The notes under the pieces: generated by a model
The model's database searches: none
What the model saw: the letters and a program-made list of their open reading frames with translations, nothing else
What the model was told of the DNA's origin: nothing
NCBI GenBank assembly: GCA_048882045.1
Contig: JBHLRZ010000001.1
Span: 32,001-96,000 of the forward strand
Length of the DNA: 64,000 nucleotides
From: Candidatus Thorarchaeota archaeon
Lineage (GTDB): Archaea > Asgardarchaeota > Thorarchaeia > Thorarchaeales > Thorarchaeaceae
Direction: 5' to 3'
Position numbers and translations under genes: made by a program
Shown: positions 1,176-48,950 of the stretch, piece by piece
How positions within the stretch are numbered: the first letter of the stretch is position 1
How the letters are laid out: each line of letters starts with the position of its first letter

Positions 1176-2120
1176 ATGGCTAGACCAGTGCGTGCCAACC
1201 AGCAGCATCAGAAGGGCTTGGCAGTCTGTTCTGTTTGCGGTGGCAGTGATTTTTATGAAGACTTGACACGCGGCGAACACATTTGCACTTCATGCGGATG
1301 TGTATTGAACGAACGACTCCTAGACACAGGACCAGAGTGGAGGGCTTTCACAGCTGAAGAGAGAAATGCTAGAGCCAGAACTGGTTCTCCTATGACATTG
1401 ACAATGGCGGACAAAGGTCTTGCCACTACAATTGGCTGGAGCGATAGAGATGCGAATGGTCGTGCGATTGCTGCAAGCAGTCGTGCTGCGATCTACCGAA
1501 TGAGGAAATGGCAGATCAGAACATTAGTGCACAGCTCCCAGCACAGGAACCTCAGCATTGCTATGAGTGAGATGGACAGATTGACATCCCAACTTGGTGT
1601 CCCACATGAAACCAAGGAAACCTCAGCACTCATCTATCGAAAGGCTCTATCAAGGCGCCTCGTCAGAGGTAGGAGCATCGAGGGCATGGTGGCTGCAACC
1701 ATCTATCTATCATGCCGAATCCACAAGATTCCACGACAACTCGATGAGATAGTCACAGAGGCAAGGGTCAACAGGAAAGAGCTTGGACAGTGTGTCCGAC
1801 TCATTCTCCGCAATGTTGACGTCAAGGTGCCAATTCCTTCAGCAAACGACCTTATGCCAAGGATCTCTGCAGACCTTGGACTTGATGGAAAGACTGTCCA
1901 GACCGCGATGAACATCATCAACGATGCTAGAGAGAGAGGCATCACAGCTGGTAAAGATCCAGGTGGTCTTGCAGCCGCAGCCCTCTACATCGCAGGCATC
2001 ATCGAGGACGATAGAAGGACTCAGAGAGAGATTGCTGAGGCTTCTAATGTTACAGAAGTGACTGTTCGAAACAGGTATAAAGACCTGGCAAACAGCCTTC
2101 AGATTACAATCAAACCATAG
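1176..2120 (+). CDS. tfb: transcription initiation factor IIB (TFB), copy 1
   Basis: N-terminal CxxC..CxxC Zn ribbon, PEWRAF B-reader, GRS and GKDP cyclin repeats, EVTVRNRYK HTH. Confidence 0.97.
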   Translation: MARPVRANQQHQKGLAVCSVCGGSDFYEDLTRGEHICTSCGCVLNERLLDTGPEWRAFTAEERNARARTGSPMTLTMADKGLATTIGWSDRDANGRAIAASSRAAIYRMRKWQIRTLVHSSQHRNLSIAMSEMDRLTSQLGVPHETKETSALIYRKALSRRLVRGRSIEGMVAATIYLSCRIHKIPRQLDEIVTEARVNRKELGQCVRLILRNVDVKVPIPSANDLMPRISADLGLDGKTVQTAMNIINDARERGITAGKDPGGLAAAALYIAGIIEDDRRTQREIAEASNVTEVTVRNRYKDLANSLQITIKP

Positions 2121-2158: not shown

Positions 2159-2299
2159 CCATTAGATTCATTTGTGTAGAAAACTGACATCCTTAGGATT
2201 CAAATGAACAAGCTCATTCTCGCACTCTGTGGTTTCCCTATAGAGAGTGTGAGTGACATACTTCTCGATAGATTGAGAGAGTTATTTTGAGGAGATTTA

Positions 2300-2563
2300 A
2301 TGACAGACCTGTATCTAGAAGACTATGGGTCCAAAGAAAAGGAAGATATCTGTTGGCAAACAATAGGTGTTCTCTGTGTGGTCATAATTGGGTTTGTCTT
2401 GTTCTATATGGTCTATACATCACTCTGGGAGCTGATGCTTCCAGCAATTTCAGATCGTGGTCTTGAACTAACAAGTCTAGGATTGATTTTTGGAGTAATA
2501 TTAGTAGTCTATATTGTCAGAAGCAAGTCACTAGAGAAAAGGAAGATAATGGCGGCTTCCTAA
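2300..2563 (+). CDS. small membrane protein (2 TM)
   Basis: GAGGAG SD-like site upstream, two hydrophobic segments; its stop codon lies within the 3' end of the convergent tRNA-Sec. Confidence 0.6.
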   Translation: MTDLYLEDYGSKEKEDICWQTIGVLCVVIIGFVLFYMVYTSLWELMLPAISDRGLELTSLGLIFGVILVVYIVRSKSLEKRKIMAAS

Positions 2564-2640
2564 GAGAATCGAACTCTCAACGCTTGCACCTTCACGGGTT
2601 TGAAGTCCGTGGGACCAGACCACCGTTCCTGTAGAAGGCC
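2550..2640 (-). tRNA. selC: tRNA-Sec (anticodon UCA)
   Basis: Minus strand folds as 9-bp acceptor (GGCCTTCTA/TAGGAAGCC), 7-bp D stem with TGGT loop, 6-bp anticodon stem with loop CT-TCA-AA, long variable arm, 4-bp T stem (AGAG-TTCGATT-CTCT), discriminator G and encoded CCA: the 9/4 archaeal/eukaryotic tRNA-Sec fold. Confidence 0.92.
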
Positions 2641-2666
2641 AGGACTATCTGTGAAAGGGAACTAAT

Positions 2667-3314
2667 CTAAATGTAACGACCAATAATGTTCTGAGTTTCC
2701 CGTTTCCATTCTATACTCTTCTTAGCGAGTTCAGAAGCGATATTTCCAGGCATTGTTTCATCACGAGGAAGTGATTCGATTTTCGATAGCCATGCTGCAG
2801 TTGTGAGTGTGGTTGACGGGATACTCTCCTCACCCTCGGTTGCTTTGATTATCATCTCCCTCCCATGTGCCACCTGAACATAGACATCGTTCACAGGGGC
2901 TTTAGCGAGAATTTCTTTGATAACTCTGTCCCAACAGGTCTTTGCAACCAGTGCTTTCTTGAGTTTGGATCTGTCATTCTCAGATAATGCCTGATACTTT
3001 GAGAGTGTAGCATCCATTGCTTGGATGTGATCATCAACATAGACTGAGAGTGCGACCTCATCATGTCCCATTGCTGTTAGTTCAACAGCAGCCTGTGCTT
3101 TTGTCACTTGAATCGCAGCATGTGCTTCTTCACCTGCAATTCTGAGGGAAAACTTTGCAGACCCGTGGAAATCCTGACTCTCTGCCTCACTATGTTCTTC
3201 TAAAATCAGATTGGGTTTGGATGCAACAACATACCAAGCCAGTCTGAAAACAATGTCAGGATCAACGCTGCTGTAGTTGAGTTTGCGAGAGACCTCGGTC
3301 ATTTCTTCATTCAT
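2667..3314 (-). CDS. hypothetical protein between selB remnant and tRNA-Sec
   Basis: 215-aa open frame with GGAGG-like SD upstream; no recognised motif. Confidence 0.75.
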   Translation of the reverse strand: MNEEMTEVSRKLNYSSVDPDIVFRLAWYVVASKPNLILEEHSEAESQDFHGSAKFSLRIAGEEAHAAIQVTKAQAAVELTAMGHDEVALSVYVDDHIQAMDATLSKYQALSENDRSKLKKALVAKTCWDRVIKEILAKAPVNDVYVQVAHGREMIIKATEGEESIPSTTLTTAAWLSKIESLPRDETMPGNIASELAKKSIEWKRETQNIIGRYI

Positions 3315-3346
3315 TCGACTTGCCCTCCCTCAAGGGTTCCCCTAGT

Positions 3347-3740
3347 CTACTTACTGGCCTCCTTATAGAGTTTAGTTGTGGCTGTCTCCACATCGTTTTT
3401 TGAGGCGCCAATGGCTGCATTCATAACAATGTGTTCTCCAGTTTGGACCATTGGACCTTCATCTGCTGCAATAACAATGATTGCTCCATCAATAATGTTG
3501 GCACCAGCAACGACACTCCTGATAAGATCAGCGTGTCCTGGAGCGTCAACTAGAGTGACTGGAATCCGTCAAGTTCCAAAATTGTAAAGCCAAGATAGAT
3601 GGTAATTCCCCGTTTCTTGGCTTGAGGGTGTTTGTCCAGTCCAGCGGTTGAAACTTTCTTGCGCATTGCTTTTGCTAAGGCGTTTTACCATGGTCAATGT
3701 GACTCATGAGCCCAACATGCACTGGAACGAGACTACCCAT
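3347..3740 (-). pseudogene. selB: selenocysteine-specific elongation factor SelB/EFSec, frameshifted and truncated
   Basis: Manual translation gives three frames: MGSLVPVHVGLMSHIDHGKT / LAKAMRKKVSTAGLDKHPQAKKRGITIYLGFTILELDGF / VTLVDAPGHADLIRSVVAGANIIDGAIIVIAADEGPMVQTGEHIVM. These match the archaeal SelB G domain, with 1-nt losses near 3681 and 3560 and a stop after about 130 codons. Confidence 0.9.
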
Positions 3741-3825
3741 TTCTGAACTTCAAATGTGGCTGGTGGAATTGAACATAAAACCAGTGTCAGAGGACTTTAT
3801 TGGGACGATTGCTGAATCAAAGGCT

Positions 3826-4251
3826 ATGGTATCACGGTCGTTAGAGAAGATGTTGCTTATTGCAATAGGTCTCTCGACAGCAGTCATTATTGGTGTTCCA
3901 GTCTTGTTGTATGCTATTGAAACGATAAACACGACCACTCAGTTGCAGGAAGCACAATTGGCAGCAGAACTGATTCATAATGCCACAAACACAGTAGATA
4001 CTGGAATCTCCAATTCAACTGCAATCACCATTTGGATCCCCAGAGGAGCGGTTGTATCAGCTGTGGGGAACACTCTTACAGTATCTTTCGCAGAAATAAC
4101 AGAATCATGGACTGAAACATACAATCATGAAATATCAGTTGATGACCCTCCGTTTAATCCTGAAGGCCAATTACTCTATACGATAGAAGTTGTCATGATT
4201 GGAGATGTCATTCACATCGCCTTTGACGCAGTCCCAACATACCGTACTTGA
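3826..4251 (+). CDS. pilin-like secreted protein (class III signal-like N-terminus)
   Basis: Short basic leader, then SLEKMLLIAIG hydrophobic helix and a beta-rich Thr/Asn-rich domain; start moved to ATG 3826 because the ORF-track start overlaps selB. Confidence 0.55.
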   Translation: MVSRSLEKMLLIAIGLSTAVIIGVPVLLYAIETINTTTQLQEAQLAAELIHNATNTVDTGISNSTAITIWIPRGAVVSAVGNTLTVSFAEITESWTETYNHEISVDDPPFNPEGQLLYTIEVVMIGDVIHIAFDAVPTYRT

Positions 4252-4325
4252 ACTCGATGGAGCACAACGTTTTTAATCTAGGCTCAGGTTCTCGCGCCAA
4301 CAGCACCCAGCGAGGACTGAATTCA

Positions 4326-18958: not shown

Positions 18959-19182
18959 CCTTTTAGTCTCCAGTCTAGGACAATTCCTTCGTGACGTACT
19001 TTTTACGCTTTTGGTGAATCAGTCATGGTGGCTTATTTGACAATGTAGGATATTCTCTATCACAAGCGTATTCTCGTTTGAAAATGAAATATCGTGAAGA
19101 GATTCTGACCGTTATTCTCAACCTTTATTACCAATACTGATTGAAGCTCGCAAGTTGTGTTCTGCTGAACGAGGACCCCTAT

Positions 19183-21741
19183 ATGACCTCAAGTGACCCC
19201 AAAGGACAGGCTGAATCAGCCGAAATCGAGGTAGTGTCTACTGATTCCGAACTACGTATCGGTGTGTTTCCTTGTATGTGTGGTAAGAACATCGGTGCAG
19301 TTGTTGACATAGAAGCTGTGGCCGAGTACGCACGGACACTCCCAGGAGTCGTATTTGTTCAGGTGAATCGTTACACCTGTGCTGACCCTGGTCAACGAGA
19401 AATAGAGGATGCAATCAAAGAGTATGGTCTCAATCGAATAGTAGTTGCATCATGCAGTCCAACTATGCATGAAGACACCTTCCGAAAGGCAGTGAGATCA
19501 GCGGGACTCAACCCATATCTATGTATCATGGCAAACATCCGTGAACATGTTTCATGGGTACATCGAGAAGATCCTGTTGCTGCAACAGAGAAGGCGAAGG
19601 ATTTAGTTGCCATGTCTGTAGCTAAGGCTGCAACACTAGAAGCGCAGAAGGAGCTGGATGTTCCAGTGACTCAAGCTGCGCTAGTTGTAGGAGCTGGTGT
19701 TGCAGGTATGCAAGCAGCTCTTGACTTGGCGGATTCTGGATTCAAAGTCAACTTGGTTGAAAGAGAACCCACGATAGGCGGCATAATGGCGATACTGGAC
19801 AAAGTGTTTCCACAGAATGACTGTTCCATCTGTATCCTAGGACCTAAAATGGTAGATGTGGCCAAGCATCCAAATATCAATCTGATAACATTGGCTGAGG
19901 TCGAGTCCATTTCAGGATATGTAGGAAACTTCGACGTCAGAGTGAAGCAACGGGCGCGTTATGTAGATATCGACAAGTGTACAGCATGCGGGGATTGTGT
20001 CGAGGTTTGTCCAGTGGATGTTCCCAGTAGGACTGATCAGAGTCTGACTTGGCAGAAAGCGATCCAAATCCCATTTCCACAAGCTGTCCCATCATCTTAC
20101 TTCATTGATCATGATTCTTGTCTTGGAATGGACCTGATTAGATGCGGAAAGTGCATCGACAGGTGCGAACAGGAAGCGATTGTGTCGTCGGACACTGCAC
20201 GCTACATCGATTTCGAAGTTGGTGTCATCATTCTGGCAACAGGATTCCATCCTGCTAGTCCAGAGAAGATACCACGCCTTGGATGGGGCAGATATCCCAA
20301 CGTCATCACCTCGCTCGAGTTTGAACGTCTGATCAACGCTGCAGGACCTACTGAAGGAAAGCTTGTGAGACCCTCAGACCTGGCAAAGCCACAATCTGTA
20401 GCAATTGCTCAGTGTGTCGGGTCACGCAGCATAGACACGCGAATCAATTGCTCGAATTTCTGTTGTGCGGAGTCGATTAAGTGTGCACTTCTCATTAAGG
20501 AACACTATCCTGACACTGAAGTCACAATATACTATCAGGATCTGAGGATGCATGGCAAGTATTTTGAAGAACAGTATCTCAAGGCCCGAGAAGAGGGGAT
20601 CAAATTTGTTCGGGGTCGTGTTGGAGAGATACAACAATATCCCAAGACAAAGAACCTGAGAGTGAGTGTAGAAGACACGACTCACAACAAGTTAGAGATG
20701 CTTGAGTACGACATGGTAATTCTGTCTATGGGTGCTGAAGGCCAGTCAGGGAACTTCCCTATACCGATATCCTGCACCTCAGACTCATTCTACATTGAGT
20801 CACATCCCAAACTGAGACCCGTTGATACGAGCTCAGCAGGAGTGTTCATTTGCGGAGGAGCTGAAAGTCCCAAGGACATTCGTGACTCGGTCATTCAGGC
20901 GAGTGCTGCGGCAGGACGCGCTGCGATTATTCTACAGAAGGGCAGATATCCCATCGAAGCACTCAGCGCTCGTATCATGCAAGACAAATGCAATCGTTGT
21001 GGTACATGTGTGAAGCGATGTCCGTACGGTGCTATCTCACAGGATGGTACAGGTAAGTACACAGTGACAGGGGCTCTCTGTCAAGCATGCGGCACATGTG
21101 CTGGAGACTGTCCACAAGATGCCATTTACATGCCCAATTTCACAACCCAACAGATTGAGGCTCAGATAGAGATCGCTCTTGCTGAGAATCCTGAAAAGAA
21201 GATAGTGGCCTTCGCATGCAACTACTGTTCCTACCGGGGATCTGACCTCGCAGGTGTTTCAAGGATGCAGTATCCTACCAATGCTCGAGTCATACGAACG
21301 ATTTGTTCAGGGAGGTATTCTACCAAGTTCGCTCAGAAGGCCTTCGAGCTGGGTGCTGGTGCTGTGCTCTATTCAGGTTGTCACCTTCCAGCAGACTGTC
21401 ACTTTCAAACGGGAAACCATTGGATGGCCAAGCGAGAGCCACGGATTAGAGGTTGGATGAAGCGGAATAACATTGATGATGAACGATTTAGAGTTGAGTG
21501 GGTTTCTGCAAGTGAGGGAAAGAAGTGGCAGGGCATCATGACAGAGTTGGCGACTGTAGTTGAGAAACAAGAGATGAGTAAGCCTAAGCCAAAGAAGCCG
21601 ATTACAAAATCCAAGAAGAAGACACAACCAAAAACGAAGGAAAAGCCGAAGAAAAAGACAGCAACTAAAGCGAAAAAGACGACGAAGGCAAGGAGTGTTG
21701 GTGTTAAGAAGACGAGTACGACTAAGAAAGGAGGGAAGTGA
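19183..21741 (+). CDS. hdrA: heterodisulfide reductase subunit A fused to C-terminal MvhD domain
   Basis: CMCGKNI, ASCSP, VVGAGVAG (FAD), FPQNDCSIC, ferredoxin motifs, QCVGSR; MvhD FACNYCSY..CSGR..GCH..DCHF; Lys-rich tail. Confidence 0.95.
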   Translation: MTSSDPKGQAESAEIEVVSTDSELRIGVFPCMCGKNIGAVVDIEAVAEYARTLPGVVFVQVNRYTCADPGQREIEDAIKEYGLNRIVVASCSPTMHEDTFRKAVRSAGLNPYLCIMANIREHVSWVHREDPVAATEKAKDLVAMSVAKAATLEAQKELDVPVTQAALVVGAGVAGMQAALDLADSGFKVNLVEREPTIGGIMAILDKVFPQNDCSICILGPKMVDVAKHPNINLITLAEVESISGYVGNFDVRVKQRARYVDIDKCTACGDCVEVCPVDVPSRTDQSLTWQKAIQIPFPQAVPSSYFIDHDSCLGMDLIRCGKCIDRCEQEAIVSSDTARYIDFEVGVIILATGFHPASPEKIPRLGWGRYPNVITSLEFERLINAAGPTEGKLVRPSDLAKPQSVAIAQCVGSRSIDTRINCSNFCCAESIKCALLIKEHYPDTEVTIYYQDLRMHGKYFEEQYLKAREEGIKFVRGRVGEIQQYPKTKNLRVSVEDTTHNKLEMLEYDMVILSMGAEGQSGNFPIPISCTSDSFYIESHPKLRPVDTSSAGVFICGGAESPKDIRDSVIQASAAAGRAAIILQKGRYPIEALSARIMQDKCNRCGTCVKRCPYGAISQDGTGKYTVTGALCQACGTCAGDCPQDAIYMPNFTTQQIEAQIEIALAENPEKKIVAFACNYCSYRGSDLAGVSRMQYPTNARVIRTICSGRYSTKFAQKAFELGAGAVLYSGCHLPADCHFQTGNHWMAKREPRIRGWMKRNNIDDERFRVEWVSASEGKKWQGIMTELATVVEKQEMSKPKPKKPITKSKKKTQPKTKEKPKKKTATKAKKTTKARSVGVKKTSTTKKGGK

Positions 21742-43136: not shown

Positions 43137-43489
43137 TGGCTCTGGAGCAGAAGCGCGACTGACGGTACTCGCTCTTCGGAGCGAGAGCTGAGGAAACTCC
43201 CGACTGCGTGTCGACACCAGTCCTACTGAAGTAGGGAGGCGAGAGCCTCGCTCTGGGAACAGAAACGACACCCCCAAGCTGGATATGACAATGATACAGA
43301 GATTCAATCTGTTGAGGATCAGTTTGGAACGGTTGAAACGGCCTATCACTGGGCAGCAATCTCAAGAGTAGGCTTGCGATGAGTCGACCTGAAGCCTAGG
43401 GTAGAGAGCATAGTTTGATGTTGCAAGACTCCAGATAGGTAACATTCTGGAGTGGAACAGAATTGGGGTTACTCTCTGGACCAGAGCCA
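43137..43489 (+). ncRNA. rnpB: ribonuclease P RNA
   Basis: Terminal helix TGGCTCTGG/CCAGAGCCA, CR-I GAGGAAACTCC, ACAGAAA, TGAAAC and CR-V AACAGAATTGGGGTTA. Confidence 0.92.
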
Positions 43490-48829: not shown

Positions 48830-48950
48830 GCCGAGGTAGCCAAGCCCGGTTCACGGCGACAGCCTGGAACCAACAGTCGTACGAGCGATTGTCGCTCAGA
48901 CAGCTGTTCTCCAATAGGAGGCATGAGTTCAAATCTCATCCTCGGCGCCA
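48830..48950 (+). tRNA. tRNA-Ser (GGA) with 32-nt intron at 37/38 (48870-48901)
   Basis: GCCGAGG/CCTCGGC acceptor, ACAGC-CTGGAA[intron]A-GCTGT anticodon arm, long variable arm, TTCAAAT T loop, G73 plus CCA; bulge-helix-bulge (CTGG/TCAG). Confidence 0.93.

Follow-up and report, generated by a model that had tools for sequence, protein, structure and literature searches.

The selenocysteine locus of a Thorarchaeota genome

The DNA studied here (the window) is a 64,000-nt stretch of a Candidatus Thorarchaeota archaeon genome (GCA_048882045.1, contig JBHLRZ010000001.1, forward-strand positions 32,001-96,000). The assembly, labelled G000 below, is a MAG of 93 contigs with a completeness of 93.4%. 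Near the start of the window lies a locus that in related genomes encodes the selenocysteine (Sec) machinery. Six congeners have the same neighbourhood, with the gene order TFB, pstK, tRNA-Sec, an ORF of 215-221 aa (Sel_Asgard), spcS, selB and a divergent flanking gene. In these six genomes tRNA-Sec scores 56-60 bits, pstK belongs to the KTI12 family and selB encodes 464 aa (TIGR00475, 290 bits). Congeners have a single Sec cluster, located at the position equivalent to the window locus. The window aligns with the congener loci on both sides, and ~2.3 kb are absent between 3430 and 3425. The features identified are as follows (window coordinates).

1176..2120, + strand: TFB gene, left synteny anchor (ORF and synteny)
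2204..2290, + strand: pstK remnant, a 28-codon in-frame micro-ORF (alignment to congeners)
2554..2640, - strand: decaying tRNA-Sec, UCA anticodon (Rfam RF01852 match)
2667..3314, - strand: Sel_Asgard, intact, 215 aa, NF045535 "putative selenocysteine system protein" (211.9 bits, cut-off 132)
3347..3430, - strand: final 27 codons of spcS (SepSecS) with the stop codon, joined to the selB remnant (protein alignment)
3425..3430, - strand: deletion junction, 6-nt microhomology ATTGTT (alignments to G004 and G002)
3431..3740, - strand: selB (EFSec) pseudogene remnant, codons 1-104, from G1 to just beyond G3, in three frames (three-frame translation, alignment, synteny)
3563..3564, - strand: second 1-nt deletion, in the Tyr/Phe codon preceding VTLVD, placement ambiguous by a few bases (alignment to G002)
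3681..3682, - strand: first 1-nt deletion, third base of the Thr codon in GKT, making TAG at 3675-3677 (alignment to G002)
3706..4251, + strand: divergent flanking gene, right synteny anchor (ORF and synteny)

The true start of the flanking gene at 3706..4251 is likely the internal MVSRSLEKM. An ORF for an 87-aa hydrophobic, membrane-like protein at 2300..2563 (+) separates pstK from tRNA-Sec. It is conserved in G004 and absent from G002, whose pstK stops 5 nt short of the tRNA. Elsewhere in the window we found an archaeal RNase P RNA (43143-43483, +, 167 bits) and an intron-containing tRNA with a long variable arm (48830-48947, +, 43.4 bits with Rfam) that ARAGORN missed.

A selB stub fused to the end of spcS

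Three-frame translation of the minus strand across 3347-3740 yields MGSLVPVHVGLMSHIDHGKT and then TAG, followed by ALAKAMRKKVSTAGLDKHPQAKKRGITIYLGFTILELDG, by (P)VTLVDAPGHADLIRSVVAGANIIDGAIIVIAADEGPMVQTGEH and finally by IVMNAAIGASKNDVETATTKLYKEASK and a stop codon. An initial reading made from the sequence alone (the sequence-only reading) had described a SelB G domain split over three minus-strand frames, and the translation agrees. The stub is orthologous to selB, based on synteny with the six congeners and on its closest sequence, which is selB; at the syntenic position the intact congener gene encodes 460-464 aa. Nucleotide alignment with the intact selB of G002 (74% identity) contains exactly two 1-nt gaps. 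They correspond to the two single-base losses proposed at ~3681 (giving TAG) and ~3560, and are located at 3682/3681 and ~3564/3563, respectively. The replacements seen in SHIDHGKT and GITIYLGF are also real: G13S in the P-loop and D49Y in switch I both affect sites invariant among 10 Sec-using congeners. Across 80 sites that are invariant in the 10 congeners the stub departs at 7, most intact genes at 0-1, and the G004 gene at 5.

The stub protein is ~85% identical to intact SelB orthologues and most resembles the SelB of G004, with which it has GEHIVV and VIAADEGP in common. The G3 motif (DAPGH) is intact. In place of the P-loop GxxxxGK[ST] and the switch-I GITID the stub has SHIDHGK, after which the frame shifts, and GITIY. 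Its longest frame reaches 53.7 bits with TIGR00475, below the 242-bit cut-off, compared with 267-311 bits for intact congener SelB. The G4 motif (NKxD/TKxD), beta-barrel domains II-III and domain IV are absent from the stub because they were removed by the 2.3-kb deletion, which also took spcS.

Homology had at first been read as ending after QTGEHIVM. This holds for G4 and domains II-IV, which are indeed missing, but not for the codons that follow, as the next 27 are the C-terminus of SepSecS. The tail (IVMNAAIGASKNDVETATTKLYKEASK) is 89% identical to the C-terminus of G004 SepSecS over 28 aligned residues (E 2e-11). At the junction, ATTGTT is common to selB (GEH-IV-V) and spcS (SY-IV-M); G004 reads GEH-IV-VLQ in its selB and SY-IV-MNAA in its SepSecS. 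Measured against G004 ~2299 nt are missing, and 2308 against G002. One deletion took three quarters of selB, at its 3' end, and 94% of spcS, counted from its start. SepSecS, a ~440-aa PLP-dependent fold (PF05889/TIGR03531), persists here only as its final 27 codons; the intact G002 protein gives a PF05889 match of 385 bits.

Decay of tRNA-Sec, pstK and selD

The selB pseudogene had been described as adjoining a tRNA-Sec, and a tRNA with a UCA anticodon is indeed present at 2554-2640 (-). ARAGORN reported no tRNAs in the window, and tRNA-Sec was found with Rfam, at 46.0 bits relative to a gathering score of 47; Sec-using congeners reach 56-61 bits. Eight substitutions affect sites that are invariant in 8 Sec-using congeners, four of which retain pairing and four of which break stems, at tRNA positions 84, 15, 35 and 51 (window 2557, 2626, 2606 and 2590). 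The UCA anticodon and the overall RF01852 arrangement are kept, with one mismatch each in the acceptor, D, anticodon and variable stems, respectively. The minimum-free-energy fold is no cloverleaf (-26.0 versus -38.8 kcal/mol). Given a score barely under the Rfam threshold, this tRNA may retain residual expression.

The pstK remnant consists of 12 N-terminal codons, ~6 codons without clear homology and ~10 C-terminal codons. Approximately 682 nt have been deleted, and where PSTK has its P-loop (GxxxxGKS) and kinase core the remnant reads ...LCGFPIESV..., the P-loop being gone. Intact congener PSTK proteins are 249-257 aa long (KTI12 120 bits, TIGR03574 150 bits).

The selD gene is encoded elsewhere, and in ~20 congeners it has an in-frame TGA within a GUSCK motif. 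In G000 it has been excised on contig C9 between perfectly conserved flanks, where an interval of 1187 nt in G004 is reduced to 136 nt (~1026 nt deleted); the 3'UTR is still in place, preceded by the final 20 coding nt. In three other congeners (G001, G003 and G013; L040-L042) a fused SelD of 743-750 aa without TGA (~400 bits) takes the place of the Sec-containing SelD (344 aa) seen in the other congeners. SelB in these three genomes is longer (483-488 aa).

Several checks had been proposed together with the sequence-only reading. When the whole 93.4%-complete assembly was searched, neither SelB nor SelD exceeded its cut-off, and SepSecS and PSTK had no match. The best SelB-like matches were rejected as EF-1alpha-type GTPases, including an EF-1alpha-like GTPase of 554 aa on contig C3. 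Of the partner genes, selD is excised, pstK is gutted and SepSecS is reduced to 27 codons, and sister genomes have the intact cluster at the same place.

A TGA-containing gene family and its broken copy in G000

Besides SelD, the only selenoprotein family found in the genus is one we refer to as CxxU. It comprises a 268-aa protein with the motif ECxxUG, in which codon 25 is TGA in ~20 congeners (for example L065:1501-2304 in G004). In these congeners the TGA is in frame and coding conservation extends to both sides of it; the G041 orthologue is a Cys form (CSSC). Directly 3' of the gene is a putative SECIS, a hairpin framed by AUGA...GA and supported by 7 covarying base pairs. The SECIS-like hairpins of the CxxU gene (L065:2298-2343) and selD (L058:8844-8887, minus strand) start with AUGA or GUGA, whose UGA is the stop codon of the gene itself, and a second conserved hairpin follows. 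The Rfam SECIS models do not detect these hairpins, and those of CxxU and SelD are out of register when aligned jointly.

No Pfam or NCBIfam model matched the CxxU family. Its homologues in public records are exclusively Thorarchaeota-labelled entries annotated as "hypothetical protein", and every gene call begins after the TGA. We did not find the family in the Asgard selenoproteome literature (PMC11227280; PMC13188914). CxxU is apparently an undescribed Thorarchaeota selenoprotein family.

The G000 copy (contig C8, 20515-19925, minus strand; L062:2426-3016) retains the TGA. Internally it has lost 399 nt, its frame is shifted by +1 close to the end, and two SECIS pairs are broken. It is the only recognisable TGA-bearing selenoprotein gene remaining in this genome, so the proposed examination of in-frame UGA genes and SECIS elements ends with a sole candidate that is itself broken.

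TGA-containing FlpD/MvhD, NiFeSe hydrogenase and AhpC-TSA peroxiredoxin genes were searched for in the genus and none were found. We considered the HdrA-MvhD gene of the window (19141-21741) as a Sec-to-Cys conversion and rejected it, as its orthologues in Sec-using G004, G002 and G009 are of the Cys type with no TGA. Two HdrA paralogues in G004 and G009 were flagged as containing TGA; in the G004 cluster on contig C10 these are ordinary stops between adjacent ORFs. This cluster is a 9.5-kb set of Mvh/Hdr hydrogenase-heterodisulfide reductase paralogues (L059:1-9500, G004:C10), present in G004 and G009 with all genes in Cys form and absent from G000 at the syntenic flank (C18, near 29970).

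Losses elsewhere in the genus and in other Thorarchaeia

Loss of Sec is not unique to G000. Within the genus, selB is present in 21/27 congeners and selD is above cut-off in 23/27 (24/28 with G000 counted). Three genomes (G008, G016 and G021) are without selB only through contig breaks; all three retain a TGA-containing selD, and in G008 and G016 pstK is present together with a good tRNA-Sec. Like G000, G012 and G020 are without the entire Sec machinery, and both have scars. G020 has a tRNA-Sec of 37.6 bits and ~57 decayed spcS codons, and G012 has ~70 decayed spcS codons with pstK and tRNA-Sec gone. The selB stub has been lost altogether from both. Deletion junctions differ among G000, G012 and G020 at the spcS-selB locus and again at the selD locus.

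FastTree phylogenies of two syntenic regions that are unlinked to each other (5544 and 2275 aligned residues, respectively) both have the topology (G020,(G000,(G004,G012))) with support ≥0.985. G004 is fully Sec-competent. Because it nests among the three Sec-less genomes, the losses look independent, and three separate events would be the simplest reading of the trees and junctions. Alternatively, a single ancestral loss may underlie the Sec-less state of G000, G012 and G020, with G004 regaining the cluster through transfer, as could be suggested by the occurrence of all three Sec-less genomes in one four-species clade. We consider this unlikely. Both unlinked-locus trees place G004 as sister of G012 (support ≥0.985), three different junctions occur at both the spcS-selB and selD loci, and the G000 stub is most like the selB of G004 (GEHIVV, VIAADEGP). 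Moreover, G004 would have to regain four separate loci.

Outside the genus, the locus has collapsed in the same way in three more Thorarchaeia (G075, G056 and G101). In G075, TFB is directly followed by a 215-aa ORF (Sel_Asgard) and the flank, and in G056 the Sel_Asgard ORF adjoins the flank. Retained in G101 are a stub of pstK, the Sel_Asgard ORF, 122 spcS codons and the first ~101 selB codons, the latter two as a fusion (L119:4019-4674) of selB codons 1 to ~101 with spcS codons 324-445. The selB breakpoint in G101 is at most ~10 nt from that in G000 and is joined to a different spcS site. As read from the alignment, the G101 deletion probably used a V-Q-T microhomology.

Sel_Asgard, the gene that was spared

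The one intact gene of the G000 cluster is Sel_Asgard. Its NF045535 match spans positions 3-194 of the 195 in the profile, at the equivalog level. It contains no stops or indels, and 3 changes, all conservative, occur at 94 sites that are invariant in Sec-using congeners. The three Sec-less genomes of the genus have 3, 1 and 1 changes at these 94 sites and Sec users 0-8; for G000 alone the comparison is not significant (Fisher p = 0.19). The dN/dS ratio is ~0.06, a value that cannot date the loss, pairwise dS between species being saturated. The gene is intact in 6/6 Sec-less Thorarchaeia (the window, L036, L032, L117, L118 and L119). Conversely, in two genomes of another genus (G064 and G065) selB is present and Sel_Asgard is not detectable. 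Sel_Asgard matched no Pfam family, and its AlphaFold model (pLDDT 76) had no PDB match at E ≤0.001 (best TM ~0.3) and provided no functional clue. We presume that it is a hypothetical protein already linked to Sec, of which MBD3157761.1 is an example. Such a Sec-linked hypothetical protein, with this accession as the example, is mentioned by an Asgard survey (PMC11227280).

The G000 gene has the same place as the Sel_Asgard of Sec users, between tRNA-Sec and spcS, but it persists with every other Sec gene gone. Sparing of this gene, repeatedly, while several deletions struck all of its neighbours suggests that it is under selection for a Sec-independent role. Its persistence after the loss of the other Sec genes speaks against a role limited to Sec insertion. 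If so, Sel_Asgard would be neither a dedicated Sec factor nor the missing SECIS-binding protein. The locus constitutes a natural experiment on Sel_Asgard, the sole uncharacterised gene associated with the Sec system of Asgard archaea.

How the cluster was lost

We conclude, with a probability of about 0.93, that the selB sequence is a dead remnant within a collapsed Sec cluster, in an organism predicted to be without selenocysteine synthesis or insertion and to use UGA only as a stop. The sequence-only reading had taken several independent lesions as genuine pseudogenisation and a sign that Sec decoding was being lost. The lesions themselves agree with it, as do the synteny, the failure to find the genes elsewhere in the assembly and the exact recurrence of the sequence in independent contigs.

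We infer the following order of events. The ancestor would have had TFB, pstK, tRNA-Sec, Sel_Asgard, spcS and selB in order, as in nearly all congeners. A deletion between two copies of the 6-nt microhomology would have removed most of selB and spcS together, a second, in-frame deletion would have gutted pstK, and a third would have excised selD at its own locus. Afterwards, the selB stub may have gained its two single-base deletions and the replacements in its GTP-binding motifs. The now useless tRNA-Sec would then have gathered the substitutions that break four stems, and the CxxU gene would have been left as a wreck still holding its TGA. We infer a recent loss, dating back roughly 0.04-0.09 neutral substitutions per site, since the stub protein retains ~85% identity to intact orthologues even though synonymous sites between species are saturated.

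Could a working Sec system be encoded in the unassembled 7% of the genome, with the window locus a redundant decayed duplicate? The completeness of 93.4% leaves room for this, and some Asgard genomes do have two selD genes (PMC11227280). We nevertheless judge it very unlikely. Congeners have one cluster, exactly at the window position, and the selD scar is at the single syntenic selD site. Furthermore, four protein families are absent together, and the only selenoprotein gene found is broken.

Even less probable is that an assembly or sequencing artefact, or a chimeric join, conceals an intact selB. The genome is a MAG, and Sec-using relatives share its samples: contigs from run X1 are longer by 776 or 1033 letters at the pstK site, and the same samples hold relatives with intact pstK and intact tRNA-Sec, which accounts for the additional depth and the variant letters seen over the tRNA. 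However, Logan contigs from four runs of two studies (X1, X2, X5 and X6) cover 2560-4300 wholly or largely, at depths of 5-21, with 0 differences and 0 gaps, and this agreement takes in both frameshifts and the deletion junction. The indels and the junction were thereby compared with sequencing data, as had been proposed, and matched exactly, in assembled contigs, from which a rare intact allele in the population could escape. In addition, independent deletions have struck three further Sec genes at their syntenic positions, two of these genes being on different contigs, and the junction coincides with a microhomology rather than with a contig edge. We put just as little weight on a stub that still functions, for example as a truncated GTPase made by programmed frameshifting, for despite the intact DAPGH (G3) and the ~85% identity to intact SelB this would require two -1 corrections in a protein with the P-loop Gly and switch-I Asp replaced and G4 and domains II-IV absent, no partner enzymes are left, and G012 and G020 do without any stub.

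Significance and comparison with known systems

Presence/absence surveys of MAGs cannot separate true loss of Sec from missing data, and the dead selB, its scarred surroundings and the orphan TGA gene in G000 are positive evidence of loss. Together with its relatives, G000 forms a graded series of decay stages. The locus also led to an unannotated family, CxxU, for which the gene calls in public databases all begin after the TGA. The Sec trait may be fragile in this genus, as very few client proteins were found: the selenoproteome seems to be little more than SelD and the CxxU protein, with the SECIS core of the CxxU gene overlapping its own stop.

To a broader proposal we would give even odds. 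Thorarchaeia would have shed Sec repeatedly and recently, through at least six independent collapses of the five-gene cluster among 87 species, two of them microhomology-mediated with selB breakpoints at most ~10 nt apart. Sel_Asgard would be the only gene spared, having a Sec-independent role, and the trait would perhaps be fragile through its tiny selenoproteome.

Archaeal and eukaryotic SelB (EFSec, TIGR00475), as in Methanococcus maripaludis and Sec-using Thorarchaeia, resembles the window copy in orthology, in recognisable G1-G3 and in clustering with spcS, pstK and tRNA-Sec. Unlike a working SelB, the window copy keeps 104 of ~464 codons, has two frameshifts and has lost the P-loop Gly and the switch-I Asp to replacements.

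Losses of the Sec trait have occurred in some insects. In bacteria, loss of the trait is dynamic (Zhang et al., 2006; PMC1794560), and in some Thorarchaeia it was suspected from presence/absence data (PMC11227280). The kind of loss is thus already known; what is new is the proof at the level of relics, its recurrence by different deletions, an orphan TGA gene, the CxxU family and the behaviour of Sel_Asgard. The Asgard survey (PMC11227280) concerned the same clade and the same machinery and also concluded that some lineages are without the trait. It scored presence and absence, however, and could not part loss from incomplete genomes, whereas here relics and scars are found, and recurrently. 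As in other lineages that have lost Sec, such as bacteria, machinery and selenoprotein genes vanish together once the selenoproteome is small. In contrast to the bacterial losses, the present case is archaeal: the five genes affected form a cluster, deletions occurred at microhomologies, and a selenoprotein gene is left orphaned with its TGA.
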